DNA of 63,729 nt, counting the filler, from Reclinomonas americana ATCC 50394 (lineage: Eukaryota), in NCBI GenBank assembly GCA_048213135.1. It is 4 parts of 3 records of this genome, joined end to end, with 100 filler letters (N's around TTAATTAATTAA, not from the genome) between each part and the next. Parts side by side here need not be neighbours in the genome. Positions count along the whole stretch, not along the records: positions 1 to 19,785 come from PS015643.1; 3 more parts are not named here. One strand, 5' to 3'. The stretch's first letter is position 1; each line of letters opens with the position of its first letter. The notes below the pieces were generated by a model. The model made no database searches. It had not been told where the DNA came from and was given only the letters and a program-made list of their open reading frames with translations. Below are positions 1-51,435 of this stretch, one piece after another. The translations under genes were made by a program, and so were the position numbers.

Positions 1-220
1 CCTCTCCCTCTCCCTCTCCCTCTCCCTCTCCCTCTCCCTCCCCCTCTCCCTCTCCCTCTCTCTCCCTCCCTCTCCCTCCCCCTCTCCCTCTCCCCCTCCC
101 TCCCCCTCCCTCACCTTCCTCTCCCTCACCCTCTCCCTCTCCCTCTCCCCTCTCCCTCTCCCTCTCCCTCTTCTCTCTCCCTCTGTCCCTCTCCCTCCCT
201 CGCCCTTCCCCCTCCCTCCC
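1..220. repeat. (CCCTCT)n-type polypyrimidine microsatellite, intronic
   Basis: Directly visible; followed by the acceptor cag at 234-236. Confidence 0.9.
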
Positions 221-236
221 CGTTTCCCCAATGCAG

Positions 237-1080
237 GAAGTGCTGATTGGCGCACTCAGCCGCGACGAGTGGGTCGCCAGGGAGGTGCAGCAGTATCTGG
301 TGCTGGATCGGTTGCCGGCACTGAATGAGATTCGCAATGGCTTCTGGCTGGCCGTGCGACACTTGGAGTTTTGTGTTGCAACCTGCCCAGCCCTTTCCCC
401 ATGCACTTGTCATACTCACCTTGTTGCAGTGCCGAGCACATTATGAAGCTGTTTGGCTGGCGCGATCTCGAGTACGCTCTCTCGCCTGGCACTCGCATCA
501 CTGTCGACGCCATGGTTGGCTGCGCTTGCTTCTCGACCTCCTCTTTCTGTAATATATGCTGACGCGCGTGTGTATTCGCACAGATGGCGCAAGTGTGCAC
601 CGAAGGCCCGTCGTCGCTCAGCCTGGTGGCGTGGCTGCGTCGTTGCGTGGGCCTCAGCACTTTCACAGGACCACACATGCTGTCTCGCTCACCTTTGAGT
701 GCATGCAGAGCTGTTCTACACATGGGTCCTGAACGATCCGCAGCGGTGCCTCGAGTTTATCGAGCTGACCACCGGTCGCCGCCGTTGCGTCTTGCGCTCT
801 CACGAGGAGCATGTATTGTAGTGCATGCAATCTCACTCCCCCCAACGCACTCCGCCCAGGCATTCCCACTGGTCGCGTTCCGCAGTGCAACCAAATTCAG
901 ATTACCATGTCCTCGGATATTCGTGCACTGGTGTGCGCCAACCGACAAGTGCTGTTGCCGCTGGTGCGGACGGGTGATGCTTTTGCGCAGCTGATTGAGC
1001 AGAAACTGGACTCGGTGTACGGCAACATCATTGTCGTCAAGGAGCAACGCAAGCGTAACCCGTACGCCAACAGGCGCTGA
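237..1080 (+). CDS. HECT-like E3 ubiquitin ligase, C-terminal exons (5' part outside window)
   Basis: Spliced exons read YLVLDRLPALNEIRNGFWLA / HIMKLFGWRDLEYALSPG / LFYTWVLNDPQRCLEFIELTTG / DIRALVCANRQVLLP...IEQKL. These follow the HECT pattern AFREGF..LF..ELE..; FW.....FL.FVTG; AHTC.N.L.LP. Putative catalytic Cys at 934-936; stop TGA at 1078-1080. Confidence 0.7.
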
Positions 1081-1281
1081 GGTGACAACAGTTTAACTAA
1101 ACGATGGCATTTCCTAAACAAAGGGCACAATTGTATTCCATTCAGAACCTAACAAGAACAGAGAGATAGACAATATGTGTCGGCATTGCGCGACACGAAG
1201 AACTATAGCGAAAAAGACATAAGACCAAAACATACAAGAGACACAAATACAGAGCGAGAAGAGACACGCCTTCTGGAGTCG

Positions 1282-4200
1282 TCACTTTGCTGTTGGCGAC
1301 AAAGACGACAACGAGGTGGGGGTAGAGGTGCGTGTAGACCTCGTCCGCCGAGTGGCACACAAGTCGACACATGAGAGGACCAGCTTGCGACAAATGTGGC
1401 GCAGGTCGGCCGCCACATGTGCACCGTGACGCATGCTGACGATCGGCGCAAACGAATCCGAGTTGGCGAAGAGTTGCGCGAGTTCTGCGTCGTGCAACAC
1501 GCCTTCGAGAATGCGACTGACATACGATGCCGTCTCCGAGTCCGAGCTGTACGAGATCAGCATGTGGGCCAGGCGTCCGAGACCGTCGGCGCGCATGAAA
1601 CGACGGAGGTAGTCGGACTTGAATGTCGGCTGCGTCAATATGGTATCGAGCAGGTGACACACGGTCTGCGCACTGTCGCGATCCACCACCACCGTCTGAT
1701 TGGGTTGCATGGCTTCGCAGATGATCTCCAGCCCCTCGGCGGCAACAAACTGCGCCGCTGGAGGCGCGGTCGTCGGTCCGAGACCTCTCGCATGCAACAA
1801 CACGGCAATGAATCTGGTGGCCTGCACAAAGAGCTCCACTTCGTCGGCCGCCCACGCCAACTGCAGCAGCTGCACAAGTGCAGCAATTGCGCCGCAGTCG
1901 ACAAAGAGTGCACACAGCGCTGCATCTACACACATTTCCCACGGAGATGAGAAATGAAGGTGCAATGACGACGACAGAGGCACACGCAACTCTCAGGTCG
2001 CTGCAGAACGTCGCCCAACTCGATAAATGTCGACTCCATCATCATTTCGTCCTCCTCCCAATCGTCTCTCTTCGGGGCGTCGGCCACGCGACGCAAGATG
2101 GCGGCCGATTCATTCCACACACCAATGGCGGCACGAACGCCATCACGGCCGCACACCACGGTTATAGCGTCGATGCGGATTTCTGCAGGTGGTAGAAGGT
2201 ATGGAGATGAGGGAGGAAAGGGAGAGAGATTGACAGAAGACGCGAGCGAGCGAGGAATCAGCAACATTTAAGGGGGAAAGGAGTCAATTACGACGTCAGA
2301 AAGAGAGAGAGTGCGTGTGTGTAAGAGAGAGAAACAACAATCATGGCATCGAATCGGCCTCTCAAGAACAGCGATAATAAAAGCCATGAGGAAGAGGACA
2401 AGTCTTGTGATGCATCGCAACTGCGAAAAATGCACATAGGAGCCAGGGCACGTAGCACGAAGGCGGTGTGGGGAGAGTGCGCAAAACCAACCTGCCGGGC
2501 AGCAGCGCACGAGCATGTGCCAAATCAGCTCCTTGTAAAACAAGTCCACTGTGTCTGATTCCAGCAGCGAGTGTAGTAGCCGCAAGAGTACTATGCGCAG
2601 CGCGAGTGGTGAGCCAGCACTGCCACTCACCGTCGATCGAAAGAGTCACGTTACCTTGGTGACCGTGAAAGCATTCAACAAAAACGCGAATCAGTTCGAG
2701 TGACGCTCGACTCCGAGGCGCTGAGGAGGACACAAAGTTGCGGTGAGAAGAGGGAATGACCGCGACGGAAGTGTCACTCCAGACGCAACGTGACATGATG
2801 GCAGCGTTGAGAATCTGCAACGCAGGCTCGAGGCCGCCGTATTGTGGTGGTCGCAACACATTGTTCGACAAGAATGTGAGCAGCACCTGCAACCCGTCGG
2901 CCGCAAAGAATCGGCAAAACTGTTGCGGAAGGAAGCGCAGAGCGGAACCGAGGGTGGTCCATGCTTGCCAGAGCGCGAGGCGCGGAGCCGAACTGCAAAG
3001 AAAGAGAATGAGCAGACAGTGGCGTGCGCTGTTGTTACAGACACAAAGAGGCACGCAACGTGTTGCCGATAACAGACAAACACAATTCAATGCCACTGCT
3101 GGTCACGTACTCCTGAGCAAACGATACTCCGGCTGTGCACCACAGGCGAATGAAAATCCCTTCACTCCCCTCCTCGCAAAGGCGCCAGAAATATGACGTA
3201 CCGCGCACGTACAACCGGAGCACGTTGAGGGCCACTGTTAGAGTCTCCCAATTGCTCGTTGCGAAACTCTGCTGGACACAGCGCACCACGTCGGCAACAC
3301 CGTACACGCCAGTGAGCATCACCACACTTGAGTCGGTCAACAGTGCTGCGGCGAACAGGGGGATAAGCCAACGGGTCAACATGATGATGATCGCAGCTAA
3401 ACGCAACTTGGAGACGGGGTCGCCTCAGTGAACATGGTGGTCAGCACGGTGGCCAACGATTCCAACGCATTCGCACTCGGCACCACATTCCTCTCCAGCA
3501 GGTGGCGCAGGTGGCTGCCGAGTGTCTCGATGAGACTCAGCCCTGCGACCGCACACAAATCGTCAGAGGCAATCTCTCTCTCTCTTTTCTCTCCCCCTTT
3601 CCTCCACGGTCGCAGACGCAACATCGCCCACCACGCGCTGTGGGAGTCATCACAGACAGCATCATCTCGGCCGTCTCCACCACCTGTCACTCGCGACTGT
3701 GATGAGCATTGATCACGGTCGATCCCTTTTCCCCCTCTAGCTCTCACCCTTGGCGATTCGACGGCACTCTGTCGCAGAATGCACAACACGAGAGGCAGGA
3801 AATCTGCCGGCAGCACCTCGAGGCATGCTGCACGAACGCACTGGAGCACGGCGAACGGCACGACGGGCAGAGTGGGGACCAGCTTCGCCAAATCCGCCCG
3901 CACCATGTTCATCTCCGCCAATTCGTGCTCCGTGAGGGCCGAGCCCACGGGCCCCGCCAGCACCAGCCCCACCAGTTCGGGCAAACACAGCAGGCGACAG
4001 CCCTGTATGCAGAGCTTGCGCAGCGACTTGGGCAGCTGTTGCACATGCTCGCTCAGCGACTGTATCGCGGTCAGCCGTAGGTCGAGCGATTGCAGTGAGC
4101 GCGGGAGTTTCGACCAGTCCAAGAAGCCGTGAAGGCCCGGGTTGCCCGACAGGTTCAGCTCGGTGAGTCGCGAGTCGAAGCAGGAGGCCTGCGTAGCAGA

Positions 4201-5930
4201 TTACCACAACAAATAGGAGAAAGAGAGCGGGAGGCAGATAGATGCTGCACGCAACATCCAACAGCACCAATGCGCTTGGCGGTTTGACAGGGTGATGCAG
4301 CTGCGGCCATCCGGTGGACTCGGTCGCCGGAATGCAGCCGACCAGGGAGAGGCGCAGCAGGCGAGGGAAGCAGCGCTTGGCGGCGTGCAGAGTGTACGTG
4401 ATGCGGCGCAGGGAGGGACCGTCGGCGACGGACGGGAGTGTCTCGGTGTCGGCGGACTTGATCATTTCTGGGCGCGAGAGGAAGTGAGCGAAGAGGAGGA
4501 GCGGGGAGAGACATCGCAGTGACAGACCTTCACATGTCCGAAACTCCATAAGCAGCTGCGAAGAATACGGAATGGTCAGCGCATGAAGGATGTGGTGAGA
4601 AGAAGGAATGCCTGCGCGCAACTTCCACCAATGCCGACTCCACAAAGGCGCAGAATTGGCGCGAGGTGGTCCACAGAGCGTTGAAGTCGTCGATGGTGAG
4701 GTAGGAGAACACCTGCAACACGCGCGAGGAATGAGAGTCCGACGCATGCCAAGATTCCGACAATCAGGCTTCTCTCACGACCGACGGTGAGAGAAGGAAG
4801 GAAGAATATCACATTGCGACAACATGGATGTGCCACGTGTCAGTTTCTTCATGGAATGCGTACACGACGCTGCATATACAAGGGGAGGGAGGGCGGAAGG
4901 AAGAGAGATGGGAGGGCAGTGATACAGAGAGGCAGAATGAGAGCAGGAGGGCACAAAGAAGACGATCAGCCAAGATCCCGACAATCTGTGACAACATGCG
5001 TCTCGCATAATTCAATCTCTCTCACGCCTGACAGACGAGTGACACGTGTACAGAAAGGAATGAGACACCAGGAAAGGTGCAGGGAAGCGCGGGAAACGAG
5101 ATGCATCCACGAAGATCAGCGTTGACAATCAACCAAGAAGATCCCGACAACCCGCGACATCACGGCTCTCACACAGATGTCGATCGCCCTCAGACGAGTG
5201 ACACGTGTACAGGAAGAACTGAGAGAGCAAGAGAGTGGCAGAGAGAGAGGCAGGGAGGAGCAGGAAACGGAATGCATCCACGAAGATCCCGACAATCCGT
5301 GACGACATGGATCTCACACAGATTTCGATCTCTCTCGCCTGAGACACGAGTGGCACGTGTACAGGAAGGAGTGAGAGAGGCAGAGAGGTGCAGAAAGGCA
5401 CAGGAAAGCGAGTGCGTCCACGACAATTCCGACATGGATCTCACCAATCTCTTCTCTCCTCTCGCTTCCCTCCATCGCACCGCACCGAGCATGAACACAG
5501 CGAGAACCCTCTGCCACTCTCTCTCTCACACACACACGCGAGGAGAGACACAAGGAGACACCCACACAAGAGAGACCGAACAATGCGAAGTGTTCGACTT
5601 CTCTCTCTCTCTCTCTCCTCCCCACACACTCACCAGCTGCCAACACTCCACAGGCAACCCGCGACTCAGCAACTGATCACTGACCCAATCCATCAACACC
5701 ACCGGTGCACCAGTGGACGACGATGACATTCCCACAAAAGTCGATGAAGAAGAAGAACAAGGAGGTGCCTGCTGCATCACTGCATCGCCCTCATCGTCGT
5801 CATCGTTGTCACTGAGATCATCATCGTTTTCTTCATCGTCGTTGAAGGCGTCGACATCCACAGGAGCATACACAGTTCCACTTTTGTGTAGTCGGTGACT
5901 TTGATGGAGAAGAGGTTGCTCGTCGTCCAT
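1282..5930 (-). CDS. F-box + LRR + ARM/HEAT-like helical protein (multi-exon)
   Basis: Exon 1 (5930-5634) spliced to the exon starting at 4712 gives the F-box LPVECWQL|VFSYLTIDDFNALWTTSRQF. LRRs follow (LTELNLSGNPGL..LQSLDLRLTAI..LRKLCIQGC), then Leu-rich helical exons. Introns I traced are phase-consistent to the TGA at 1282. Confidence 0.7.
4960..5445. repeat. Degenerate tandem repeat (~150-170 bp unit, about 3 copies) inside F-box gene intron 1
   Basis: Recurring aagatcccgacaa..gtgacacgtgtacag..atgcatccacgaagatc blocks. Confidence 0.8.
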
Positions 5931-6147
5931 TTGTCACAGGCGCACACTCGCGGGGTGGCGCAGTGCGCGCGCGTGTGTGTGTGAGAGAGAAAAAAAGGAG
6001 TGTGTGCGTGTGCGTGCGTGTGTGCGTGCGTGAGATCCGCTCTCGGCGATTGTGCGACGGAAATGGCTGAAACCGAGCCAATTCAATCAATCTGTCAATG
6101 AAAACGCGTTTATCGCGATTTGGGTTTTATAACTCGAACCCTCTGCA

Positions 6148-6240
6148 AACGGCAGCACAGCTGCATATCACCATCTTGAGTGAGCACCAGTAACTGAGAT
6201 GTCGATGTCGACGCGGTTGTTGCAGTGAAACCACGGAAGT
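6148..6240. repeat. Dispersed homologous segment, copy 1 (copy 2 at ~61448-61548)
   Basis: Shared cacagctgcat..atcaccatcttgagtgagcaccag..gtgaaaccacg. Confidence 0.75.
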
Positions 6241-6651
6241 CGAGGACTTCGGAGAGTTGAGTCCTATTCGGAATACCGGCGAGGTGGCTAGCTCTCTGGA
6301 GAGAGGAAGCCCTTTAGGAGAGGACATGTGAGTCATCTTGTTGTTGCCTCCGTGTTTGCTGCTCTCCTCTTTCGGATCCAAACTCCATCTGGGAATCCAT
6401 AAAATTTAAAGAGCCAAGAAGTTCACGCAATGAAGTCTGCGAAGCAGCAGTGCTTGTCGATCGTGACGACGACGATAGCGGCTATTGCTCACGTCAGTTC
6501 CAGTCTTCTGTCCATCAGCATCAACGTTCTCGATGGTGAACTTCACCAATGACATGTACACTACTACTTCACAACACTGCAATAATACCTTGGCCGCAGC
6601 GACAAATGACCTTGGCACATAGAAAACATACAATATAATCTTCTTCTTCTC

Positions 6652-6766
6652 CCACAAAATGATACAATCGGGCTTACTGGCGACCATCGCCTCCTTCTGC
6701 AGCCCGCGCGCACGACGGGTGTGGGCGTCTGCCGCCTTGCGCTTTACGCATGAACGCCAGCATATG
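6652..6766 (-). CDS. Probable degenerate 3' end of NLR1
   Basis: One frame reads HMLAFMRKAQGGRRPHP...*, which resembles the TPR unit EVLALRREVLGDRHP. It follows the TPR contig if that contig is flipped, but the frame is off by 1 nt at a flush join. Confidence 0.5.
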
Positions 6767-7100
6767 NNNNNNNNNNNNNNNNNNNNNNNNNNNNNNNNNN
6801 NNNNNNNNNNNNNNNNNNNNNNNNNNNNNNNNNNNNNNNNNNNNNNNNNNNNNNNNNNNNNNNNNNNNNNNNNNNNNNNNNNNNNNNNNNNNNNNNNNNN
6901 NNNNNNNNNNNNNNNNNNNNNNNNNNNNNNNNNNNNNNNNNNNNNNNNNNNNNNNNNNNNNNNNNNNNNNNNNNNNNNNNNNNNNNNNNNNNNNNNNNNN
7001 NNNNNNNNNNNNNNNNNNNNNNNNNNNNNNNNNNNNNNNNNNNNNNNNNNNNNNNNNNNNNNNNNNNNNNNNNNNNNNNNNNNNNNNNNNNNNNNNNNNN

Positions 7101-10100
7101 NATCACGCACGAGCTCGGTGCGCGGCAGCATTGTGGGTAGCCGCGCGACGTGTGTACGGTGCTGCGGTCTTTCTGGAAGGCCATCTGAAGACAGTCGAGG
7201 CTGGCGACGATGCGATGCTGGTTGCAGACCTGCGGTATGCGTGCGCGACGTGCCTGCAGAGCATTGGCCGCCACTCCGATGCCGCGCAGCTGCATCGGGA
7301 GGTGTTGGCTGTGCGGCGTGACGTGCTTGGTGACAGACATTTGGACACGATTTCGTCCATGGGCAGTCTCGCCGTCTGCATTAGGGCCTCCGGCGACTTG
7401 CCTGCAGCCGAGCGACTGTTTCGCGAGGTGCTTGAACTGAGGCGAGAGGTGCTTGGCGACCGACATCCAGACACGATGGCCCACATGAACCATGTCGCCC
7501 ACTGCATGCATGCCAGCGGCGACTTTGCCGGTGCTGAGCAGCTGTGTCGCGAGCATTTGGCTTTGAGGCAGGAGGTGCTGGGTGACCGCCATCCGGATAC
7601 GCTGTTGGCCATGAACAATCTTGCCTTCGGCATTCAGGCCGCTGGCAAAGTTGCCGAAGCCGAGCAACTGTATCGAACGGCGCTGGTGATGCAGCGTGAG
7701 GTGCTTGGTGATAGGCATCGGGACACGCAGCTGTCCATGAGCAATCTTGCCCGCTGCTTGCTGGAGGGCGGCAATGTCGCTGAAGCGGAACGATTGTCTC
7801 GAGAGTTGTTTATGTTGAAGAGCGAGGTTCTTGGCGACGAGCATTCGGATACGCTGTCGTCTATGGACTATATCGCCAGCTGCATCCAGAGCAGCGGTAG
7901 TAATCACCGCGAGGCCGAGCGACTGTATCGAGAGGTACTGACGTTGAGACGCGAGTTGCTTGGCGAGAAGCACCCGGATACGCTTGCCTCCATGGACGAT
8001 TTGGCCATGTGCATCCGCACAAGCGGCCAGAATCTCGACGACGCCGAGCAATTGTGTCGAGAGGTGTTGGCTCTTCGACGGGGAGAGCTCGGTAAGAAGC
8101 ATCCGAGCACGTTGGCGACTGTGAATTGTCTCGCCAGCTTCATGAAGGATCGTGGCAAGTTTACTGAAGCCGAGCGTCTGTATCGGAAGGTGTTTCAGTT
8201 GCAGATGGAGGTGCTCGGAGCCCAACACCCTGCCACGCTGACATGTAAGCACAATCTTGCCGTCTGCTTCCACAAGAGCGGCAATCTCACCGAAGCCGTG
8301 CGCCTGTATCGGGAGGTTTTGTTGTTCCTGCGCGGTGGGTTTGGAGTCCGACATCCGGACACGCTGAAATGCATGCGCAATCTTGCCAACTGTCTCAACG
8401 ACAGCGGCAATGTCGCCGAGGCCGAGCGATTGTATCGGGAGCTTCTGGCGTTGACGCGTGCGGTGCATGGTGACAGGCATCCGGAAACGCTGGAATCCAA
8501 GTGCTGTCTCGCCATGTGTGCCAACAACAGCGGCAACCTCGCCGAAGGCGAACGACTGTATCGAGAGGTGCTGGCCGTGAAGCGTGAGGTGCTTGGCAAC
8601 AGGCATCCAGACACGCTGGCTTCCATTGACAGTCTCGCCGTTCTTGTCCGACACAGGGGCAATGCTGTGGAGGCCCAGCGTCTGTTTCGGGAGGTGTTGG
8701 CGGTGAGACGAGAGGTGCTTGGAGACAGGCATCCGAACACGTTGTCGTCCATCCACAACGTCGCTCGGGGCATCGACGCCAGTGGCGATCTCGCAGAAGC
8801 CGAGCGCCTGTATCGGGAGCTGTTGACATTGATGCGTGTGGTACATGGTGACAGGCATCTGGACACGCTCAAGGTCATGAACAATTACGCCATCTGCCTT
8901 CAGCTGAGGAATAATCTCGCCGAGGCAGAGCTTCTGCATCGGGAGTTGGTGGTGTCGATGCGTGAGACGGTTGGTGAGCATCATCCACAGACGCTGGAGT
9001 CTATCTACATGCTCGCCGTCTGTCTTCGAGCACACGGCAAACTCGCCGAGAGCGAGCCACTGCTCCGGGAGGCGTTGGTATTGAGGCGCAATGTTCTTGG
9101 TGACAAGCATGCAGACACGCTCACCTCCATGAACACGCTCGCTCTCTGCCTCCAGGACAGGGGCAATCTCGTCGAAGCCGAGCAATTGTTTCGCGAGGTG
9201 TTGGCGCTGAGGCGTCAAGTGTTTGGCAACAGACATGAACACACGCTGGTGTCCGTCTGTTGTCTCGCCATCTGCATACAGGCTGTCGGCCAGTTCGCCG
9301 AAGCCGAGCGACTGTATCGGGAATTGTTGGCACACGGACGTGAGGTGCTCGGTGATCTGTACGCACAGACACTGATATCGATGAACATCCTCGCTCTCAG
9401 CGTTCAGGAGAAAGGTCACTTCTCTGAAGGCGAGCGACTGCTTCGAGAGTTGTTGGTGTTGCAGCGCGAGATGGTCGGTGACCGGCATCCGAACGTGCTG
9501 ACGACCCTGAAGAATCTCGGCAAGTGCGTCTACAAGAGCGGCAACCTCCCCGAGGCCGAGCGACTGACTCGGGAGGTGCTGGCGTATCAACGTGAGGTGT
9601 TTGGTGACCGGCATCCGGACACACTGGAGACCATGGACAATATCGCTGTGCTCATGAAGGACACTGGCAACCTTGCCGAGGCCGAGCGACAGTATCGGGC
9701 GTTGCTGGCGTTGAGAAAAGAGGTGCTCGGCGACCGGCATCCAGTCACGCTGACGACCATGAGCGATCTCGCCCACTGCGTTGTGCTTCGCGGCCACTTC
9801 ACCGAAGCCGCGCGACCGTATCGGGAGACGTTGGAGTTGCATCGTGCGGTGCACGGCAACAGGCACCCAGACACACTGACGTCCATGTACAACCTCGCCG
9901 TCTGCATGCTGCCGAGCAACAACTTTGCCGAAGCCGAGCCACTGTTTCGGGAGGTGTTGACATTGCGGCGTGAGCTCCTTGGCGACAAGCACCCAGAGAC
10001 GCAGGTCGCCGTGTGCAGTCTCGCCTATTGCACCTTTGTCATCGGCAACACCACGGAAGCCGAGCAACTGTGTCGGGAGTTGTTTGCGTTGAACCGTGAG

Positions 10101-10206
10101 GTGTTTGGCGACCAGTGTGCACCGCTCCTCGTGATCATGTACAACCTCGCCATTCGTGTCCGTGGAGGCGGCACCAGCGCCGCCGACGCCGAGCGGCGGT
10201 TCCAAA
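7101..10206 (+). CDS. TPR array (~24 x 42 aa, kinesin-light-chain-like) of NLR1; contig placed in inverted orientation
   Basis: Uninterrupted ORF with consensus AEAERLYREVLALRREVLGDRHPDTLxSMxxLAxC and 23 HP-type linkers. The start (T)AT CAC GCA CGA joins flush and in frame to the minus-strand end at 10952. Confidence 0.9.
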
Positions 10207-10951
10207 NNNNNNNNNNNNNNNNNNNNNNNNNNNNNNNNNNNNNNNNNNNNNNNNNNNNNNNNNNNNNNNNNNNNNNNNNNNNNNNNNNNNNNNNNNNNNN
10301 NNNNNNNNNNNNNNNNNNNNNNNNNNNNNNNNNNNNNNNNNNNNNNNNNNNNNNNNNNNNNNNNNNNNNNNNNNNNNNNNNNNNNNNNNNNNNNNNNNNN
10401 NNNNNNNNNNNNNNNNNNNNNNNNNNNNNNNNNNNNNNNNNNNNNNNNNNNNNNNNNNNNNNNNNNNNNNNNNNNNNNNNNNNNNNNNNNNNNNNNNNNN
10501 NNNNNNNNNNNNNNNNNNNNNNNNNNNNNNNNNNNNNNNNNNNNNNNNNNNNNNNNNNNNNNNNNNNNNNNNNNNNNNNNNNNNNNNNNNNNNNNNNNNN
10601 NNNNNNNNNNNNNNNNNNNNNNNNNNNNNNNNNNNNNNNNNNNNNNNNNNNNNNNNNNNNNNNNNNNNNNNNNNNNNNNNNNNNNNNNNNNNNNNNNNNN
10701 NNNNNNNNNNNNNNNNNNNNNNNNNNNNNNNNNNNNNNNNNNNNNNNNNNNNNNNNNNNNNNNNNNNNNNNNNNNNNNNNNNNNNNNNNNNNNNNNNNNN
10801 NNNNNNNNNNNNNNNNNNNNNNNNNNNNNNNNNNNNNNNNNNNNNNNNNNNNNNNNNNNNNNNNNNNNNNNNNNNNNNNNNNNNNNNNNNNNNNNNNNNN
10901 NNNNNNNNNNNNNNNNNNNNNNNNNNNNNNNNNNNNNNNNNNNNNNNNNNN

Positions 10952-13900
10952 AGACGCTGCGGTCCACCCCGTCACTGCTCTGTTCATGAAGCCACGTTGC
11001 AGCCGCCACCGCCACTTCAGCTCCGAAATCGCGGGCGGGAAGGCGCCTCTCCACCAATCGCGCCAAGCGCGACATGCCGTCGAATCGCATCTTTGCCACA
11101 GCAAGCGATGTGCCGCTGTTCTCGTCCCACAGGCGCCGTACCAGTGATGGCAGCTCGTTCCACATCACTCGCAGACACGGTCGAATATCGCACAGGATGT
11201 CATCGTTGATGCGATGCTCGTCAGTACGCACCAGTCCACACAGAACACAACTCAACACCATCTCACGATACGGTGCAAACAGATGAACGTCAGGATCCCC
11301 TGCTGTCAGCCACTCTATCACGACGTCGTGCACCCCATACTGCGCCGTTGACGGCAGGACTTCCCCGCCAGTCAACATCACCATGCGATACAACGCGTCG
11401 CACGATTCTGCCGAAGTGGACTGTACCAACATTGACCGCTGAAGCAACTCCAGCGCCTCCACCACGTCACCTTCACCGTCGCCTTCTCGGGCCTCGATGT
11501 CTTGCAGCCACGAGTTGACGCCGGTTGATGGAGCACCACGCAGAGCCAACCGAACCAGCAACGACACCGTCCGAGCCGTCGCATGAACTCGCCTCTGCTG
11601 CAATCCCGCGACCAACATCAGCACGTGCCGCGTCAGCGGCGTGCATTGAGCCAGACTTTCGGTCAGCAGCTCTTCCAGCGACAGTGCTCGCGTCTCGGCC
11701 AGACGTGTCGCCAAAGTCTCCAGTGACAGTCGAGCAAGCATCCTGCAAATAACACATGTCACTTGAGTTTTTCATGCACGCAAGGAGCAGAAGAGCCACA
11801 CGCACCTCACAAAGAGAGCCACACGGAATGCCTGCGGCTTGTCCAGTGCCGCTGCCGTCACCTCGCGGCAAATTTCTTCCGGCGCCTCCATCTGCTGGCG
11901 CACATACTGCGCCACATCGTCGGCCTCCACCTCGCCCACCGACATGTGGAGCACTACTGCCGAGCTCAACAGAGCCGAGCGCTGCAATTCTTCGGCCACT
12001 TGCTTGAACCGCGTGGTCACGATCACCAGCGGGGCGGCCATCAACAGGGAACCTGCGACGAGACGGAACAAACCAAGATAATCAGTCAACCATGAAGTCC
12101 AACTTGAAAGCAACACAAGAAAACGAGAAAAAGGAGGAAATGACAAGACTCGAATCCACTAATCACGGTGAATGCTCTTTCTCTCTCACTCCCTGTCACC
12201 CAGCGTGAGAGGTGTGCCCACCCACTGTACTGCGCTGTGTACTTGTCCGCCAAGTCGAGCATTTCGTGCTCACTCACTCACAAACACACATCAGACAGAC
12301 ACGCACCTGCAGGGGCGAGTCCGCAGACGCCTACACGTCGCACCACATCCACGACTTGACTCCAGTGGCCGACGTTGTCGAGTAACAGAACGCCGCGACT
12401 GTCCTTCATGAGGTGGCCGAGTCGACTGCGCAGCATGTCCATATTGTCGGCCTTCTCCCCCGCCTGGATGTCGGCCAGTAGCTGGCGACTGGATTGCACG
12501 GATGTCATGGCGCTGGCGAATCCTCGAAGCCCGCTGTTGAGGACCTCCGAGGTCTGTGTCAAAGGGAAGAATGGGAAGGGAGAGGGAGAGGGAGACGAAG
12601 AGGGAGAGAGAAGGAGAGGGAGAGGAAGGGGGAAGAGAGGGGGGGAGGAGAAGGAGAATCGCATTAACCACAATGTGAACTTCATAACGACTGACGCTGC
12701 GTACTCACCGACGTGTATTGGCTTGCGTCCGCCGTGTGACCATGCATGTCCGCGTACAGGGCCGAACCACGCCACTTTTTGCGCTCCATCTCCGCCACGA
12801 TCAGCTGGGCCAATGTCGTCTTTCCACTCCCTCCTTCGCCAGAGAGCACAACCACGCCGAGCTTCTTGTCTGCGAGAAAGACAGTGAGAAGGAGAAGAGA
12901 GAGGAGGAGGGGGAGAAAGAGGAGGTGAAGGAGGAAAGGACGAAAGAGAAGGAGGAAGAGGAGACGCAGAGGGAGAAAAGTAGAAAAGAAAAAGCAAAGC
13001 AACAAAGAAGAACACGAGGAAAGAAGTGAACGAGAAGGTGGTGAGAAGGAGGAGGGGGAAAGGAGGANNNNNNNNNNNNNNNNNNNNNNNNNNNNNNNNN
13101 NNNNNNNNNNNNNNNNNNNNNNNNNNNNNNNNNNNNNNNNNNNNNNNNNNNNNNNNNNNNNNNNNNNNNNNNNNNNNNNNNNNNNNNNNNNNNNNNNNNN
13201 NNNNNNNNNNNNNNNNNNNNNNNNNNNNNNNNNNNNNNNNNNNNNNNNNNNNNNNNNNNNNNNNNNNNNNNNNNNNNNNNNNNNNNNNNNNNNNNNNNNN
13301 NNNNNNNNNNNNNNNNNNNNNNNNNNNNNNNNNNNNNNNNNNNNNNNNNNNNNNNNNNNNNNNNNNNNNNNNNNNNNNNNNNNNNNNNNNNNNNNNNNNN
13401 NNNNNNNNNNNNNNNNNNNNNNNNNNNNNNNNNNNNNNNNNNNNNNNNNNNNNNNNNNNNNNNNNNNNNNNNNNNNNNNNNNNNNGGAGGAGGAGAAGAA
13501 GAAGAAGAAGGAGAATGAGAAAACAGGAGGAGGAGGAGGAAGAGGAGGACGCAGAGGAATAAGAGGGAGAGGAGAGGAGACGTGGAGGGAGAAAGAAGAA
13601 GAAGAAAAAGAGAAAAGAAGAATTGACATTAATCGAAAAGGCAGTGAGAAGAAGAACAAGAAGAAGAAGAAGAGCAAGAAGACGAAGGAGGAAGGAGAAG
13701 AAGAAGAGGGAGAATGTGGAGGCGGAGGAGAGAAGAATAAGAAGAATGAGAATGAGGAAAACAGAGGAAGAAGACGAGAAAGAGGAGGAAGGAAGCAGAG
13801 AAGAAGTCGAAGATAGAAAAATGGAACAGAACGACAAGGTGGTGGTGAGGAGGAGGAGGAGGCGAACAAGAAGAAGAAGGAAGAAAAGAAAGAAGAATTT

Positions 13901-14426
13901 GAGTTGGACGAGGGGAAGGAGGAGGAGGAGAGAAGGAATCCCGCGACCTCTCACCAGCCTCGCACTCCAGCAGTCGCTCGGCGAGTCGCTCGGCCTCTGC
14001 GACACGGCTGGGGAACGGGAAACCATCCAGCTGGCCCACGTTTTTGAACACAACTGCCTCATTCATAACATTGGCGGCTCGCATAGAGTTAGCTCTGTTG
14101 ACAGACAGCAGGAGATGAGTGAGCGCTCGCACGAGCATACATGCATGCATATGCACACACAAACACACACACACACACACGCACAAGCACACGCACAAGC
14201 ACACTCGAAAGCATGCAGATGCACACAAAGGAAACGCTCACACACACACTCTCTCACATACACTCTCTCTGTCTCTTTCTCTCTCTCTCACACACACACA
14301 CTCACTCACTCACTCACTCACTTACTCACACACACACACTCACTCTCTCTCTCTCTCACAGAGAGAGATGTTGACACATACACTCGACATGGAGGCACGC
14401 AACTCTTCATCGGCGATGAGCGACAT
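10952..14426 (-). CDS. NLR1: STAND/NB-ARC-like P-loop NTPase, N-terminal part (no effector domain)
   Basis: ATG at 14426 (MSLIADEELRAS). Walker A GEGGSGKT at 12840-12817, Walker B VLLLDNV, sensor-1 LVIVTTR, and a YGVHD (MHD-like) motif. Collinear with the paralog at 43983-47719. Confidence 0.85.
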
Positions 14427-14690
14427 TGAGGGAGTGAGAGAGTGCTTGCGTGCTCGTTAGATTCCGTCGGAGAAATGCGTCCTGCAACTTCACGTCCACA
14501 CTCACTTCGTTCCTCGCGCGATCGTCCCTTCTGTCTCTGTCTTCTCTCGCTTGCTATTATGCTGTCCTCTGACTTTCTGCCTTCTGCAGCTTTTCATTGA
14601 GTCCAGCACAGGAAAACCAACCAATCGATGTCGCGATCGTCTGGTTGACACAGTTCGCCAGTGGCCTTCAGCACACACAGGCTCCAGCAC

Positions 14691-14851
14691 TCAGCGCTTT
14701 GCTTCCGAGATTTTATGGATTCGCGTAATACAGGAAACCCTGTTCCGCTGCCCTAAATCAGGTGAACGTGCTGTTTTTTGGAAACGGCTGGACTTGGTCA
14801 TCAAAACAGCGCAAGCTGTCATGTTTGTTGGTGAATGCACTGTTGTTGTTG

Positions 14852-14918
<67 letters not shown>

Positions 14919-17014
14919 GGTGGTGGTGGTGGTGGTGGTGGTGGTGGTGGATGTCGTTGGTGCGTATCTGAGTTGCTCACCGTCGACTTATCGCGAGAGA
15001 AGAAGCGGCGACAGCTTCATGGAGATGCAATAGGTTCACGGTTGCGGAGCTGTGCATTGCCTTGCTCAGCTGTTCCTCCTCCTCCACCTATCACCGCCAC
15101 CCGCCGACCTGGGCCAGTACTTCTTCATCGGCTGTCGACCTCCACCACCGCACTTGCGCATCCTCCAACACGAAGCAGCGCAACACAAACATGGGCAGCG
15201 GCTCCCCACAGTCCTCTTCGTCTCCGCCGCCGCCATCCACCACGCGCAGCATCTCCTCCAGTGCATCCAACGCCTCCTTGGTTGCGTCCCGCTCAGCAGC
15301 GGCACCTGCAAAGTCTGGACTCCACACGGTCAACAACAAAGTGCATGTAGTGCACGCAGGAGAACTAGAATATGACGGAACTGGGCGCCCACAAGAAGCA
15401 GGTCCCGTTGGAGGCCGCCGACACGACGTAGTTGTCGGGCGTGCATGCCACGGCCGTGACTTGGGCCGCGTGGAGGGGAAACACGCAATCCTCGCGACCG
15501 CTGGTCAAATCCCAGGCGCGGATGGTGCCATCTATTGAGGGGAAGGAGGAGGGGCGGGGGGAGGAGAAAGAGAAGAGTCAAAAAGGGACATGAGAGGGAG
15601 ACGAAGAACGGTGAACTATGGTGGCGCGTGAGTGACAATTGAAAGCAGTGACAGAGAAAGAGAAAGCGAGACAGTGAGCGAGAAAGGCGACATCAAAGCA
15701 GAGTAAGATGTGGAAACGGAAAGCAAAAACAGCAGCGTTCTCGGCTCGCTCTTTCACTGCACTCAGAGACCATCATTCACCCTCTCTCTCTCTCGGGCAT
15801 ACACATCTCATTCCCTGCTCGAGCTCAATACTCAGCCTTCGCGCTGTGCACTGTTAACCAGACACCGCAGCAGGCGAACGAGAGAGAACGAGGGAGTGCG
15901 AAAGACGACATAAAGGCGCAGTGAGAAGTGGAATCGGAAAGCAAGGAGAGGCGAGAAAACGGCGAGAGTGAGTGAGCTGCAGCGTTCTCTTGCCCTCTGC
16001 CTCGCTCTTTCACTGCTCATTCACTCCCTCCCTCTCTCTCTCTGTACTCATTTGCGTGCTCAATGCTCCACCCCTCTCGTTGCTGTCAGCAACTCACGAC
16101 AACCGCGCCCTTCTTGTCAGCCTCAACATGTCTCCCTCTCCCTCTCCCCTCTCATGCTCTACTGACTCTTTCTCTCTCTCTCTCCCTCCCTCTCCCTCTC
16201 TCCCTCCCTCCACCCTCCTTCCCCTGTCCTCCCACCACTCACCCTTCGACCCGCTCACCACAAACCGCCGATCCACCGTCACCGTCACCGACACCACCGC
16301 CTCACGATGCGCACTCCCCATCATCATCTCCCGCCTGCCGCCCGTCTCCAACGAGTGCACATGCACCGAACCATCCACCAAGCCCACCACCACCGTCAAA
16401 TCATCCACCAAACCCAGGCAACACAGCTCACGCACACACGGCACCCTCCGCACCACCTCCAGCATATTCATGCGATACACATGCACCTCCGGCTGCGCCC
16501 ACCTCGTCACCGTCGCCACCATCACAAACACACCATCACTGGTCACCCGCGCGTCGCGAATCTGTCGCGCAGCCGGAATAACGACCCCACGCACCTTCTT
16601 CCCCGCACGCACAGTCACCAGCGCGCCCGGTTCCATGCAATCGCGATGCCCGTGCGCAAATACAACTGTGTTGCATTCACTACTGCTCACCGCCAGTGCC
16701 ATGACCGACTGCTGTCGACGACCGGGGAAGGCCCACACACGCGACGTTGTATCCCATAAGCACACGCGATCACCGCCAGTCAACACCTGCGACGTCGACG
16801 CTGGCACAAAGGCAACTCGCGTGACTGCTGCATCACTGACAACAGCAGAGTAGAGCACGTGCGAGGAGTGCCGCTCAAAGACGCAGAGATGACCGCCGGT
16901 GGTGCCAGTGGCGATGCGCTGACCGCATGAGGAGACGGCGACACAGAGCACATGATGTGGTGCAGGTAGATCGAGAGGGAAGCTGCGAGTGGCCGCGGGC
17001 ACAGTGACGCTCAT
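14691..17014 (-). CDS. WD40-repeat protein with C-terminal extension
   Basis: VLCVAVSSCGQRIATGTTGGHLCVF; VLTGGDRVCLWD; VSGSK|DGTIRAWD across intron 16242-15532. The extension beyond 15381 depends on a GTTCCGT donor; otherwise the gene stops at TAG 15365. Confidence 0.7.
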
Positions 17015-17154
17015 TGAAATTGTCTGGTGTGTCCTCGTTGGCCACAGCAACAAGTCGCGTGTCGTTTTTGTGGGTCCAGCTACAATATGGTGTAGTCACG
17101 TACACAGCTGCAGTGTTGGGAAGGTGGGGGCTTGGCGCACGCGACGTCGGAGAA

Positions 17155-17250
17155 ATTGAAACTTCACTGAATGCACAACAATGAGCATCTACCAGTGATC
17201 GCCAACAAGTCTCATGTGCTTTCCTTCTACATGTACAACTAAAACTATTT
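17155..17250. repeat. Dispersed ~95-bp intergenic element, copy 1 (copy 2 at ~23803-23892)
   Basis: gaaacttcactga..cacaacaat..ctaccagtgatcg.caacaagtctc..gtgctttccttctac..aactaaaact is present in both. Confidence 0.8.
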
Positions 17251-17484
17251 GGAGCATGTTATCTATGTGGAGAATATAGCCCTGTCAATCGCAAAATCAC
17301 GCGTTTTGTGCTCTGCTTCGTTGCAAGCGCCGCTTCGCAGCTCATTCGAAAGCTCTATGAACGAGCTTTGTTGAGCACTGAAAGCCGTCGGTGAACTGCA
17401 TTGGTCTTCGGAGCTTCTCTCTCACGAAGCCTGAAAAAACCCATTGTGTCCCCTCCCTTTTGTCTTGTCGTTTTTTTCAACACA

Positions 17485-17871
17485 ATGGCGAGTGCGTTTC
17501 GTAGTTCGCTTGTCGGCTTTGTGGTGTGGTTCGTGGCGGCGATGCTGATCCGCGCGCTCGGCGACGTGTTCATGTCGCTGAGCAGCCCGTACCTCGTTCC
17601 ACTGTACGTGGCCGGTGCGCCTCTCGGCGTCGTGTTTGTCGTGTTTGCGCGTCTGCTGGCGCCCTCGCGCTCCGCCGACGAGGATCTGCGCACGTTTGTG
17701 ATGATTGTGGGAGTGGCGTCGTTGTGCGATGGAGTGGCGTTGGTGTATGCGCCGTGGATCTATGGAGGCGACGCGGAGTATTGTTTGGTGGCGGCTGCGT
17801 CTATTCTGTGGGGCGTTGGCTGGGCGTCGTTGGTGGTGCTTCTGTGGCCGGTGGCGGGCAAGAAGCGCTGA
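17485..17871 (+). CDS. Small intronless 4-TM membrane protein (DUF5367-like), paralog A
   Basis: 128-aa ORF with four hydrophobic segments; motifs G..W....IR..G, D..A....P..YG, ILWG.G; clear paralog at 19176. Confidence 0.75.
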   Translation: MASAFRSSLVGFVVWFVAAMLIRALGDVFMSLSSPYLVPLYVAGAPLGVVFVVFARLLAPSRSADEDLRTFVMIVGVASLCDGVALVYAPWIYGGDAEYCLVAAASILWGVGWASLVVLLWPVAGKKR

Positions 17872-19175
17872 GGGGAGAGGAGAGGGATGGAGAAGAAGTG
17901 AACGTGGTGATAACACGGTGATCATGACTTGGGCAAGGGCACAGGGAGAGAGAGAGGGGAGAAAGAAGAGAAAGCACAGAGGGGAGGAGAGAGGAGTGCA
18001 CGTGGAGCGGTTGCACTCTGGCTGCAACGCTCATCAGGAAGCAGTGATGCAGCGAAGAGAAGGGTGAAGCTGATGCAGCAGAAACCAGGCGTCTTGTAGA
18101 GGGAAGCTGTGAGAGAACAGAGGCAGAGATGAATGACGAGTGGTTGAGAACATGATGCAGAGAGTGGCCGCATGCGCATCATTCATGCGACGATTGCTTG
18201 GCGGCAGTGCGTGAAGTTGTCTGTCGCGCGACGACGAGGAAGGATGCAGTGAAGGGAAGAGAGAGAAAGGAGAGTCAACTCGGCCGGAAACCAGGTGACT
18301 TGTAGAAGGAAACTGTTTCCGTGAGCGATGAGAGGAGGAGAGATGAACAAGGAGAGGTGCAGAGAATGGTGGAGCACTCTTGCTGTATCATTCGCGTGAA
18401 GTATGTTGTTGCGTAACGCAGTGATGTAGTGAAGACGAGAGAGAAGAAGGAGAGTGAACGCGGCAGAAAACCAGAGCAAGGACATGGTTGCCAAGAGATC
18501 TAGAGGTGGAGAGCGGAGCTGTTACACTGTGGTTGCTTTGTGCATGAGCGTGGCTCGGAGCGTGAAGTTCTCTGGTGACGCAGTGACGAGGAGTGGCAGG
18601 GGCGTCTTCCTTTCTGCACGAGGCCCCGACAAGAAGAGGAGGCAACTGATACAGTGCGTGCAGGCTGCAACCTGCAGAAGACGCCGAGGCTCTGCAGCTT
18701 GATTGCACCGCCTCCATGTCTGCTTTTCCAGAAAGCAGCACAACAGCAGCAGCAGCAGCAGCGAGAGATATATATCGATGATGATGCAGTGACTTCCAAA
18801 TATGGGCAAAGCGAGAAAATCGGAATCGTCGTCAACGTCGGGCTGGCGTTTCTTCAACGGAGAGAGCTATCACTTCACGACACGAGTGGACTCCGCCCAC
18901 ACACATCGTTGCGCCGCACTAGCGGATCTTGGAATCTCTGAATCTTGCAACTTGTACAAGACTCGTCTCCGCCAACCGCGATCGGAGAAACCAGCTTTCT
19001 TTTGTGCTGGAGCTTGCGCGCTCTCCAGGCAAACGAGGCGAGTCCACATACATGGAAGGCAAGAGCGCTCCGATAACCGGACCCCGCGCACGTCGGCGAC
19101 GGAGTTGCTCGCGTCCGGCACACGCACATTCTCTTCGTCTTTGCGCGCACAAACAACCAACCAACCAAAAGAACA

Positions 19176-19571
19176 ATGGCCTCCACTCTCCGCAGCATCG
19201 TCGTCGGCGTCATCCTGTGGTTCGCCGCCGCGCTCTTCATCCGCCTCCTCGGCGACACCTTCATGTCGCTGAGCAGTCCGTACCTGCTCGCACTGTACGC
19301 GGCCGGTGTGCCCGTTTCCTTTGCCCTTGTGTACACCCTGCGCCTGATGGCGCCCTCGCGTACCGCCGAGGAGGACTTGCGTACGTTTGTGCTGGCCACG
19401 GGCGCGGCGACGTTGTGCGACGGGGCGGCGTTGGTGTATGCGCCGTGGTTGTATGGAGGCGGGGCGGAGTATTGCTTGGTGGCGGGCGCGAATATTTTGT
19501 GGGGCGTGGGTGTGACGTCATTGGTGGTGTTGTTTGGGCCGGGCCCGGCGTCCGCCCAGAAGAAGGCCTGA
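19176..19571 (+). CDS. Small intronless 4-TM membrane protein (DUF5367-like), paralog B
   Basis: 131-aa ORF; shares FMSLSSPYL, EDLRTFV, CDG.ALVYAPW.YGG.AEYCLVA and ILWGVG with paralog A. Confidence 0.75.
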   Translation: MASTLRSIVVGVILWFAAALFIRLLGDTFMSLSSPYLLALYAAGVPVSFALVYTLRLMAPSRTAEEDLRTFVLATGAATLCDGAALVYAPWLYGGGAEYCLVAGANILWGVGVTSLVVLFGPGPASAQKKA

Positions 19572-19829
19572 TTGGAGGGAAAGGGAGAGAGAGGGAAGGG
19601 AAATGAAGGTGCAATCGTGATGCAATGGGGGGAAGGGAGAAGAGGAGAGGGAGAAGATAAGGCGGGAGGGATGGTGGCTATTGCGCCTTGGGTTGGCACT
19701 GTGTCACGACAAACACTCCATGTGCACCTACCGTTGTGCCTTGCCTTCCCCTCCTCCTCCTCCTCCTCCTCTCTCTCTCTCTCTCNNNNNNNNNNNNNNN
19801 NNNNNNNNNNNNNNNNNNNNNNNNNNNNN

Positions 19830-19841
19830 TTAATTAATTAA
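19830..19841. other. Artificial scaffold linker TTAATTAATTAA (also at 47764-47775 and 57822-57833)
   Basis: Identical six-frame-stop 12-mer centred in 100-nt N runs. Confidence 0.95.
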
Positions 19842-20455
19842 NNNNNNNNNNNNNNNNNNNNNNNNNNNNNNNNNNNNNNNNNNNNGGGAAATGAAGGTGC
19901 AATCGTGATGCAATGGGGGGAAGGGAGAAGAGGAGAGGGAGAAGATAAGGCGGGAGGGATGGTGGCTATTGCGCCTTGGGTTGGCACTGTGTCACGACAA
20001 ACACTCCATGTGCACCTACCGTTGTGCCTTGCCTTCCCCTCCTCCTCCTCCTCCTCCTCCTCTCTCTCTCAGCTCTCTCTCAGCTCTCCTTCCGCAATGC
20101 AGCACGATAACCATCCCTTCCAAACCGAAAAGGGCCTCTTTCCTTTCAATCCTTCCAAGGGAGACACGTATTCGCTGCATCACGATAATCACTTCGTCTC
20201 AATTCGCAATCGCAGTCATTCCCCCCACCCTCCCTCTTCCCTGCTAGTCTCCTTCCCTTTCTCTTCCTTTTGGGTGATATTTGTTCGCACTGCATCACGA
20301 AGGAGGCAACAAGAAAGGTGAGGGAACGAAGAGAGATTCCTGCTTCTGAACTCTATGTGAGTTGTCCCTGTTCCTGGTGACGACCAGCTGTTGCTTATCT
20401 ATCAGTCGCTCGATTCTTTTACTTCCCCTCAATCAGCTTACACGAGTATTTAGAG

Positions 20456-30400: not shown

Positions 30401-31574
30401 GTGGCTTGGGAGCCAGTGGAGGTGGCAGGTGTGGCCGACACCGATTTCGATGCCAGCGAGAGGCGACGGATGATGTGCGTGGTGTAATCGGCAATGAGCA
30501 CCGATGCAGTCGATGCATCGAAGGCGAGGTGAACAGGCGAGTTGAAGCGTGCCACAGCCAGAGCACTGCCGTCGGCTGATCCACTCACGCCCGCCGCACC
30601 ACCAATGGTGCTCACGGACGAGTCTGACACTCGGAGTTGCCGCACGGTGTTGTTGGCAGACTGCGTGGACCAGAGGACAGTCAGAATCGAGAAAAGAGAT
30701 GCTCAGAGAGTGTGGTGAGTGGAAAGATACACAACATCGGCAACATAGATGACGTTGTTTCCTGCGTCGTAAGCCAGTCCGATCGGCGTGTTGAATCGGG
30801 CAAACTTTCCTGAATCGCGTGTACCCACAGCTCAGCGCGAACGTGAAGAACCAGATCGGGTACCCACCAGATCTAGTTGGATCGGATGAACTCACCGGCG
30901 GCATCCGTGGATCCAGACAAGCCGCTTGCTGAACCCGCCACCGTTCCCACCGTCATCGCCAACGTGTCAATGGCGCGTATGGAGTTGTTCACACGGTCAG
31001 CTGCAATGAAGTACAAACAATGAGGACGTGCGGGGTGTCATCTCTGCGCTTCCCCTCTCCGGATCCCCTATCTACACTCACCAACATACAGCGTGGAACC
31101 GACGAGAAGCACGCCGTTGGGACCACCGAATCGCGCCACTCCCGCGCACGCACCATCGGCGGTGCCACTCACGCCCGTAGAGCCACAGAAGGTCGTCGCC
31201 GCACCGGCATACGTCACTCGCCGAATCGTTTTGTTGAGCCAGTCGCCCACATACACTACCTGATTCGCGGCATCCACTGCCACTCCCGCAGGCTGGTTGA
31301 AGGAGGCCGCTGTGCCCGTGGCATCGGCACTTCCCGACGCTCCATTGCCCGCCAGTGTGGTGACCTCTGCCGCTGCAGTGACAGCACGCACGGCGTGGTT
31401 TGTCAGCTGTGAGAGACGCAGAGTCAGAGAGTCAGCAGAATGTGCGTCTGTCATACGTGGTCTTCTCTCCCACAACACACTCACATCGGCGACATAGACA
31501 GTTCCCGTGGTTTGATCAATGGCGAGGCCAGCGACACTGCGAGTATGTGTGAGTGCGTGAAGAAGAGAGAGATA

Positions 31575-31624
<50 letters not shown>

Positions 31625-32586
31625 AAAGACAGCGAGTATCCCCACGCACTTTTTGAACTGAGCTGCGTGCCCTGTGCCGTCCAGCAGGCCGCACGTGCTT
31701 CCCGCAAAGGTGGTCACTGTTGCTGCAGGTGTGACGCGCCGAATGCGGCAGTTGCTGCCCTCATCATCAAATAGTGTGTGTTTGGGACAGAAATGTCAAA
31801 ACGAATGCTGACAAACCTGAAGTCGCCCACATACACGTTGCCCATGGCGTCAAAGACCAGCCCCTGTTGAGAGAGCACGCACAGTGTGTCAGCGAAGGCG
31901 CATGGCAGGCACAGCAAGGACACGCGCGCCATCGTGATCACCATTGGGTTTGCAAATCTTGCACTTGCTCCCACGCCATCCGTCGTTCCCGAGGCGCCTG
32001 CTGTGCCCACGAAGGTGGAAACAGAGGCGGAGGAGACGCCAATGGCGGCAGCATAGGGGGACCACTCGAACGAGTTGGTGGTGCCGCCGGCGACATTGTT
32101 GGGATTGACCCACGCATTGAGAGTGGTGGATGAGCCAGAGATGTTGTCAGCGACGGCGGTGGTCACTGTCTGGGCGTCTGCAGTGTGGTGCAGAGAGAAG
32201 AGTGAGGTTCGCGTTTAAAGCACAAATGTCGTGGAATCCGAATTCGAACAAGCGCTGCGCTGCGCAGCGCTGCAGCATGCGCAGCCACGCAGCGCTGCGC
32301 ATGCGCGGTGGCGTACGCGCCCACGTGGTAAATATGCGATGACACGCAGTGCATTGCAAAACGCACAGACCCCCGAGCATGATTGAGCGCACCCACACCC
32401 ACGAACCCACACACACGCATGCGCATGCGCAGCGATGATGCGCACATGCGAACACGTGGACACGCAACTTGCAGAGACGACGAGTGAGTGGACGAGCAAG
32501 ACGATGAAGAGCGTAGCGATAGAGAGCGTATGCGTCTGATGCACTGAATAGCACAAGTGGCAACGAGACACAATTCGCGCGCTCAT
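24440..32586 (-). CDS. Large secreted/surface protein: signal peptide, 2x [FN3-like with inserted NHL propeller + cadherin-like], further cadherin-like and IPT/TIG-like domains, C-terminal PAN/Apple domain
   Basis: Signal peptide ..LFIVLLVHSLVVSA|NA-QT. NHL repeats (DG.G.AA.FN.P.G.A.D...YVAD..N..IR). Cadherin-like N.APT.I.....TTD.D....FTYS..GG.....TD.G. PAN CQFE..D..GG...CCEAC...CRSWTF...CTLK at ~24735-24560. The 3' end is uncertain. Confidence 0.75.

Positions 32587-51403: not shown

Positions 51404-51435
<32 letters not shown>

Follow-up and report, generated by a model that had tools for sequence, protein, structure and literature searches.

The locus raises the question of whether NLR1, a STAND NTPase-TPR gene in a 63,729-nt stretch of Reclinomonas americana ATCC 50394 DNA (the whole of which is called the window here), has lost an N-terminal effector domain that its paralogue NLR2 carries and, if so, in what state the gene was left. 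The preliminary description had proposed an in-frame deletion of a HEPN effector, leaving an effector-less sensor, decoy or negative regulator that partners NLR2, or else an early pseudogene.

Gene models of NLR1 and NLR2

Exon models of both genes were built by hand. On the minus strand, NLR1 begins with exon 1 (14389–14426), which extends from the start codon to a candidate donor (T|GTCGAG) and is identical at 33 of 38 nt to exon 1 of NLR2 (43983–44020, plus strand); the two genes thus have this exon in common, as had been described. Intron 1 (14095–14388, 294 nt) has GT/GA microsatellites; it is free of N and of any coding sequence left over from the lost domain. It is followed by a fused exon 2 (13955–14094, 140 nt), composed of a left, a junction and a right part, and by the CT-rich intron 2 (12870–13954), which measures 1085 nt as assembled, including an N gap at 13068–13485, compared with 74 nt for its counterpart in NLR2. 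Exon 3 (12709–12869) encodes the P-loop GEGGSGKT, exon 4 (12307–12553) the Walker B motif LLLDNV, exon 5 (11806–12052) the TTR motif, and exon 6, followed as far as an N gap (10952–11742), the VHD motif and a helical region.

NLR2 was modelled on the plus strand. After exon 1, the putative HEPN-like domain starts in exon 2 (44262–44444) and continues through exon 3 (44590–44809) and exon 4 (44870–45062), which encodes RNGFMH (R-x4-H) and has a weak Pfam match to DUF4559 (E 0.18). Exon 5 (45133–45255) holds the end of the domain and the linker, and aligns with the end of NLR1 exon 2. Exons 6–8 (45330–45490, 45597–45840 and 46150–47719) encode the NTPase, the helical region and the first TPRs (exon 8, Pfam TPR_12 E 7.3e-25), and the last of them is cut by a spacer at 47720. 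The spliced frames are open in both genes, with 0 stops in the 541 codons of NLR1 and 0 in the 910 codons of NLR2.

Most of the donors modelled in the two genes (10 of 12) conform to G|GTG[AC]G, and both exon-1 donors read T|GTCGA. This candidate exon-1 donor is conserved between NLR1 and NLR2 and is the sole site in frame with exon 2. A more consensus-like donor 6 nt downstream (AAT|GTGCGC in NLR2, AGT|GTATGT in NLR1) was rejected, as in neither gene would it join exon 1 to exon 2 in frame. For NLR2, exon skipping from an internal GTGAGT was likewise discarded, as it would require a different reading frame for exon 2.

Two stretches of NLR2 bear on its splicing. Intron 3 (44810–44869, 60 nt) is in frame and stop-free, such that exon 3, the intron and exon 4 together form a 157-residue ORF; its retention would insert 20 residues right before the R-x4-H helix. 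Within exon 8, a stop-free stretch of 57 nt (46397–46453) aligns with a 63-nt intron of NLR1 (11805–11743). It begins with GTTTGT after AG and ends with CAG, and its donor is unlike G|GTG[AC]G; judged by its sequence, it is a probable in-frame intron of NLR2.

Separate scaffolds of the two genes

The window is intron-rich eukaryotic DNA with 17 runs of N in 63.7 kb. Three identical 100-nt spacers, each consisting of 44 N, TTAATTAATTAA and another 44 N, are located at 19786–19885, 47720–47819 and 57778–57877. The central 12-mer is its own reverse complement and places stops in six frames. Open frames run into two of the three spacers: NLR2 is truncated in mid-TPR, with its last base at 47719, and an ORF with an MCM lid (56985–57776, minus strand) is truncated at 57777. 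We infer that the spacers are artificial and chain separate scaffolds; a literature search for the spacer sequence gave no paper on assembly linkers among the matches listed.

The first spacer lies between the piece that carries NLR1 (1–19785) and the piece that carries NLR2 (19886–47719), and their apparent 30-kb spacing and head-to-head orientation are therefore uninformative. The apparent pair is an artefact of concatenated scaffolds, and since scaffolds appear to be chained at the spacers, nothing can be concluded from gene order on either side of them. The proposed partnership with NLR2, as far as it was based on a common locus, is left unsupported by the recognition of this six-frame-stop spacer.

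Anatomy of the deletion

The fused exon 2 of NLR1 could be divided by alignment with NLR2. Its left part (14058–14094, minus strand) is the homologue of the opening 37 nt of NLR2 exon 2, with 25 of 37 nt identical in a fixed register from the acceptor (binomial P 1.3e-7). Its right part (13955–14054) is the homologue of the final 100 nt of NLR2 exon 5, the linker before the P-loop, with 76 of 100 nt identical in a fixed register from the donor (binomial P 1.6e-25). Between them, comparison of the register strings left 3 nt (14055–14057) assignable to neither flank; breakpoint microhomology is unreadable after a divergence of approximately 25–30%. Similarity searches agreed with this division. 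The end of NLR2 exon 5 matched NLR1 14043–13950 in blastn (81% over 94 nt), and further blastn matches covered the 5′ flank with exon 1 (43900–44029 vs. 14492–14380, 73% over 130 nt) and approximately 2 kb of the NTPase and helical region at 72%. Intron 1 also kept conserved blocks between the two genes.

Exons 2 to 5 of NLR2, with the introns between them, occupy 994 nt, compared to 140 nt in NLR1. The net loss of 854 nt corresponds to the segment 44299–45155 of NLR2 (plus strand) and comprises 579 nt of coding sequence, or 193 codons, together with three introns (145, 60 and 70 nt); it is in frame. The earlier estimate of about 190 omitted residues and three introns was thus accurate, as was the observation that NLR1 exon 2 opens like NLR2 exon 2 and then jumps to the linker. 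Overall, an in-frame loss has deprived NLR1 of the entire N-terminal domain present in its paralogue NLR2; the NTPase motifs are retained.

The junction lies inside a gap-free contig of 6.3 kb (13486–19785), with no N from exon 1 to the end of exon 2. Four sequencing runs that contained only 0.05 of the sampled words gave no read match to 13940–14130 at 80% similarity, a result that is uninformative for expression and for the junction. Exons of the domain between 14388 and 14094, which would have contradicted the proposed deletion, were absent from the assembly, where this interval is the N-free intron 1. A tblastn search of the whole window with NLR2 residues 1–225 revealed no remnant of the domain: outside the NLR2 exons and NLR1 exon 1 (E 0.079), the best match was at chance level (E 0.85).

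Identity of the lost domain

The NLR2 counterpart of the lost domain contains one R-N-x3-H motif, RNGFMH at model residue 158, where 0.14 would be expected by chance in 215 residues. The HEPN motif is described as Rx4-6H, typically with N, D or H right after R, in the part consulted of Anantharaman et al. (2013; PMC3710099). RNGFMH fits this motif with N after R, though the motif alone is weak. The RNase activity that characterises HEPN domains needs no metal and relies on the R and the H. The opening of the NLR2 domain and the residues after the motif may resemble a DZIP3-type HEPN.

Profile searches gave no such assignment. Single exons and the 157-residue read-through ORF (44591–45061) matched no Pfam HEPN model, PF18738 included, at E up to 10, and the best match was DUF4559 (E 0.18–0.29), on whose fold a literature search found no work. 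Neither PADLOC nor NCBIfam yielded a match for the NLR2 head domain, these profile searches having been made with unbroken stretches of genomic sequence. In a phmmer search of the PDB, the head domain matched only mS26, at E 0.7, and the 157-residue ORF had no match at E up to 10 among proteins of 86–275 residues.

Language-model neighbours gave no more than a lead for the 157-residue ORF, for which the eukaryotic clusters of the ESM Atlas returned 30 hits with scores of 0.91–0.93 at a recognition value of 2141, below the 2300 mark. Ten of these belonged to a set in whose displayed cluster 11% of members are annotated with HEPN_DZIP3, seven to a HEPN_Swt1 set and four to a DUF4559 set, and eight were in clusters without a family. 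Across the clusters, HEPN_DZIP3 was annotated on 11–38% of members and HEPN_Swt1 on 20%, with the same reservation that recognition was below the mark. The 60 residues of exon 2 alone were uninformative (best score 0.79). A single-sequence AlphaFold2 model of 44591–45061 was all helical, with a mean pLDDT of 40 and a pTM of 0.27, values that make it unusable. Taken from its sequence, the NLR2 head domain is probably HEPN-like. The label HEPN given to it previously is consistent with the motif and the language-model neighbours, and found no counterpart in the Pfam, PADLOC, NCBIfam and PDB searches or in the fold model.

The linker just past the lost domain holds a second string of this kind in NLR2, R-N-x-x-H-x-H (RNMGHLH, 45159–45179), where NLR1 reads KNVGQLD (14030–14050), with the R and H residues replaced. 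This replacement could be fortuitous, or constraint could have relaxed once the head was gone.

NTPase core and middle region

The motifs GEGGSGKT (Walker A), LLLDNV (Walker B), TTR and VHD are all present in both NLR1 and NLR2, and Walker A and B were correctly described as intact in NLR1. Pfam scores for the NTPase refer to the 53-residue P-loop exons as units only. With this scope, NLR1 scored 27.6 bits for nSTAND3 (cut-off 27.2), 22.9 for NACHT (26.7) and 21.5 for NB-ARC (23.5); the corresponding values for NLR2 were 24.4, 22.9 and 21.4 bits. A TTR motif together with an MHD-like motif is a mark of NB-ARC. In type, the NTPase appears closer to NB-ARC than to NACHT.

Between the NTPase core and the TPRs lies a region of 385 residues (46152–47306 in NLR2) that is 60% identical between the two genes. 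In phmmer, none of 1.84 billion representative proteins matched this region at E up to 0.001. With NLR2 exon 8 as query, a word search found TPR matches only, over approximately 20% of the query, and none when restricted to residues 1–385. Scanning of metagenome contigs for the family gave 91 pattern matches, 0 of which were upheld by tblastn.

The TPR array of NLR1 and its orientation

The linker and an array of 24 TPR_10/TPR_12 repeats that continue NLR1 were found at 7104–10205, between N gaps at 6767–7101 and 10207–10951 (Pfam TPR_10, E 4.7e-177, 23 stretches). The array is an open frame on the plus strand while NLR1 is on the minus strand, and the two are not contiguous as assembled. Judged against NLR2, the first residues of the array continue NLR1 approximately one codon past 10952, which implies that the 3.1-kb contig 7102–10206 is reverse-complemented in place and that the gap of 745 N is spurious. 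The orientation of this contig is most likely a scaffolding error, the simplest reading; a true inversion would break NLR1. The preliminary description of a long TPR array intact in NLR1 therefore holds for the array, which is open with 23 TPR_10 stretches, and fails for its continuity with the gene in the present assembly. The C-terminal end is unassembled in NLR1 and NLR2 alike.

A further piece of 714 nt just after the second spacer (47820–48533, minus strand) encodes approximately four TPR_10/TPR_12 repeats (Pfam TPR_12 E 4.2e-40), with a gap of 20 N behind it, and belongs to an NLR-family TPR array from which it has become detached.

Selective constraint on NLR1

Over 510 aligned codons, comparison of NLR1 with NLR2 by the Nei-Gojobori method gave a dN/dS of 0.41 (dS 0.434, dN 0.177), an average of both lineages that cannot show constraint on NLR1 after the deletion. 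In blocks of 100 codons, dN/dS was 0.245 just past the junction, followed by 0.42, 0.39, 0.33 and, for codons 400–500, 0.84. The 25 N-terminal codons were nearly relaxed (pN 0.214, pS 0.273), in a small sample. No stop was found in 1575 codons of NLR1, that is, the 541 codons of the spliced frame and 1034 codons of linker and TPRs, the latter on the opposite strand in the assembly. When substitutions alone are considered, with 478 one-step paths to a stop, 0.019 neutral substitutions per site are enough to bring the probability of a stop-free frame below 0.05. Compared with a dS of 0.43, this limit and the absence of stops indicate that NLR1 was constrained for nearly all of its history. The gene does not look long dead from its sequence, and an early pseudogene, in the sense of one that decayed over any long period, is at odds with the open frame and the dN/dS. 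The paralogue comparison put forward earlier as a check on neutral evolution thus gave a non-neutral value.

Proposed history and alternative explanations

The account that we favour, which we hold to be about as probable as all the alternatives together, is that NLR1 and NLR2 would be old paralogues (dS about 0.43) of one STAND NTPase-TPR gene, and that NLR1 would be a retained, headless descendant of it. The gene ancestral to both would have encoded a helical, HEPN-like domain of about 200 residues at the N-terminus. A single deletion of approximately 854 bp in the NLR1 lineage, with breakpoints in exon 2 and exon 5, would have taken 193 codons and three introns and fused what was left of the two exons without a shift of frame. 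The truncated gene would have retained its start, 5′ flank, P-loop, Walker B motif and long TPR array under continued purifying selection, and most likely still yields an NTPase-TPR protein without an effector.

A minor but appreciable chance must be given to NLR1 being a recent pseudogene, disabled by the deletion or by a later change before stops arose. Loss of the presumed effector would fit such a fate, as would the near-neutral N-terminal remnant of 25 codons, the non-consensus donor of exon 1, the growth of intron 2 to 1085 nt, compared with 74 nt in NLR2, and the unassembled C-terminal end. The time available for it is short, however: the absence of stops from 1575 codons caps neutral drift at less than approximately 0.02 changes per site, compared with the dS of 0.43 between the paralogues, and the deletion is in frame and the NTPase motifs are intact. 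An incomplete gene model, in which further exons upstream, located in gaps or beyond the scaffold, would give NLR1 a different N-terminal domain instead of leaving it effector-less, is quite improbable. The scaffold is indeed fragmentary, but NLR1 shares a conserved start codon, exon 1 and 5′ flank with NLR2, and between 13563 and 19783 the only Pfam domain among the composition-filtered ORFs of at least 110 residues (17 of the 125 scanned) is that of a WD40 gene.

Slightly less probable again is an artefact of assembly, with the fused exon being a chimera made by the assembler and the true NLR1 still possessing the domain. The poor quality of the assembly, with its 17 runs of N in 63.7 kb, its flipped TPR contig and its concatenated scaffolds, invites this suspicion; nevertheless, the junction lies in unique sequence within the gap-free contig, its flanks share no repeat able to mislead an assembler, and a random chimera would be in frame only one third of the time. 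If the event is real, its direction was very probably that of loss, which we infer by parsimony, as no outgroup was found. Since the sequences on either side of the missing segment are found within one NLR1 exon, loss by deletion is by far the more parsimonious reading, compared with gain. For the short form to be ancestral, an 854-bp insert with three introns would need to have landed in frame within an exon of NLR2, with both donor breakpoints in exons, and NLR1 exon 2 opens with a homologue of the start of the domain-bearing exon of NLR2; such a gain is highly improbable.

Possible role and comparison with known systems

STAND proteins function as oligomers, and for HEPN RNases pairing of the domains is generally required. 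It follows that a headless subunit could either feed its own TPR specificity into an oligomer or dilute the heads. If NLR1 is the retained gene of our favoured account, it would, by analogy with truncated plant NLRs, enter oligomers of head-bearing paralogues. In such mixed oligomers it would lend its own TPR specificity or, more likely, dilute heads that need pairing for activity.

Truncated NLR paralogues are common in plants, and NRG1C, an N-terminally truncated plant helper NLR, antagonises its full-length relatives, according to the part consulted of one preprint (bioRxiv 10.1101/2021.01.27.428547). As far as that part goes, NRG1C resembles NLR1 in being a paralogue that lacks the N-terminal domain and keeps the NTPase and repeats, but differs in adjoining its full-length copies, whereas NLR1 and NLR2 are separated by an artificial spacer. 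The family of NRG1C has a different N-terminal signalling domain and LRRs. In the present family, a HEPN-like head would be combined with TPRs, and NLR1 is known from sequence alone. On this analogy, NLR1 could be a maintained and expressed headless subunit that co-assembles with paralogues bearing HEPN-like heads, sets the threshold of an RNase-type immune response by blocking head pairing and represents an independently evolved protist counterpart of NRG1C-like inhibitory NLRs; in this full form the proposal is unlikely.

A close parallel to the NLR2 architecture is given by the DZIP3/hRUL138-like HEPN domains, which animals and Capsaspora combine with NACHT, TPR and other modules (Anantharaman et al., 2013; PMC3710099, in part), and by the NACHT genes of the pearl oyster, where an N-terminal DZIP3-like HEPN occurs and Rx4H with N after R is its commonest form (PMC9646362, in part). 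Insofar as these excerpts describe them, such fusions have, like NLR2, an R-N-x3-H motif in a helical N-terminal domain (putatively helical in NLR2) that precedes a STAND NTPase and repeats. NLR2 differs from them in having no significant match to PF18738 and in its NTPase, which looks NB-ARC-like and not NACHT; its RNase activity is putative. With fungal and bacterial NB-ARC-TPR STAND proteins (TPR_10/TPR_12), the family shares a P-loop NTPase ahead of an extended TPR array with repeats of 42 residues, with strong TPR hits, but only the TPRs match, over approximately 20% of the query, and the 385-residue region is without a detectable relative.

NLR1 is one domain-loss paralogue in a fast-evolving family, seen in a fragmentary assembly, and the change is of a common kind. 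If it is expressed, the theme of truncated plant NLRs would also have arisen in a protist family built from other parts (a HEPN-like head, an NB-ARC-like switch and TPRs), and NLR1 would provide a natural domain-deletion control for the function of the head. Practical value is mostly cautionary, given that the "pair" is artefactual and the HEPN label not established. The main points to retain are an in-frame deletion that cleanly spans introns, the orphan 385-residue region, and the warnings raised by the concatenated scaffolds and by the flipped contig.

Other features of the window

Recognisable coding pieces elsewhere in the window, all on the minus strand, comprised WD40 repeats (16097–17095), an NHL repeat (31071–31760) and the MCM AAA-lid domain (56985–57776). 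Just upstream of NLR1, at 14840–14960, runs of the trinucleotides CAC, AAC, CAG and CAA were observed, which would encode poly-His, poly-Asn and poly-Gln if the minus strand were read; blastn showed similar trinucleotide runs at 51100–52190 on the third scaffold.
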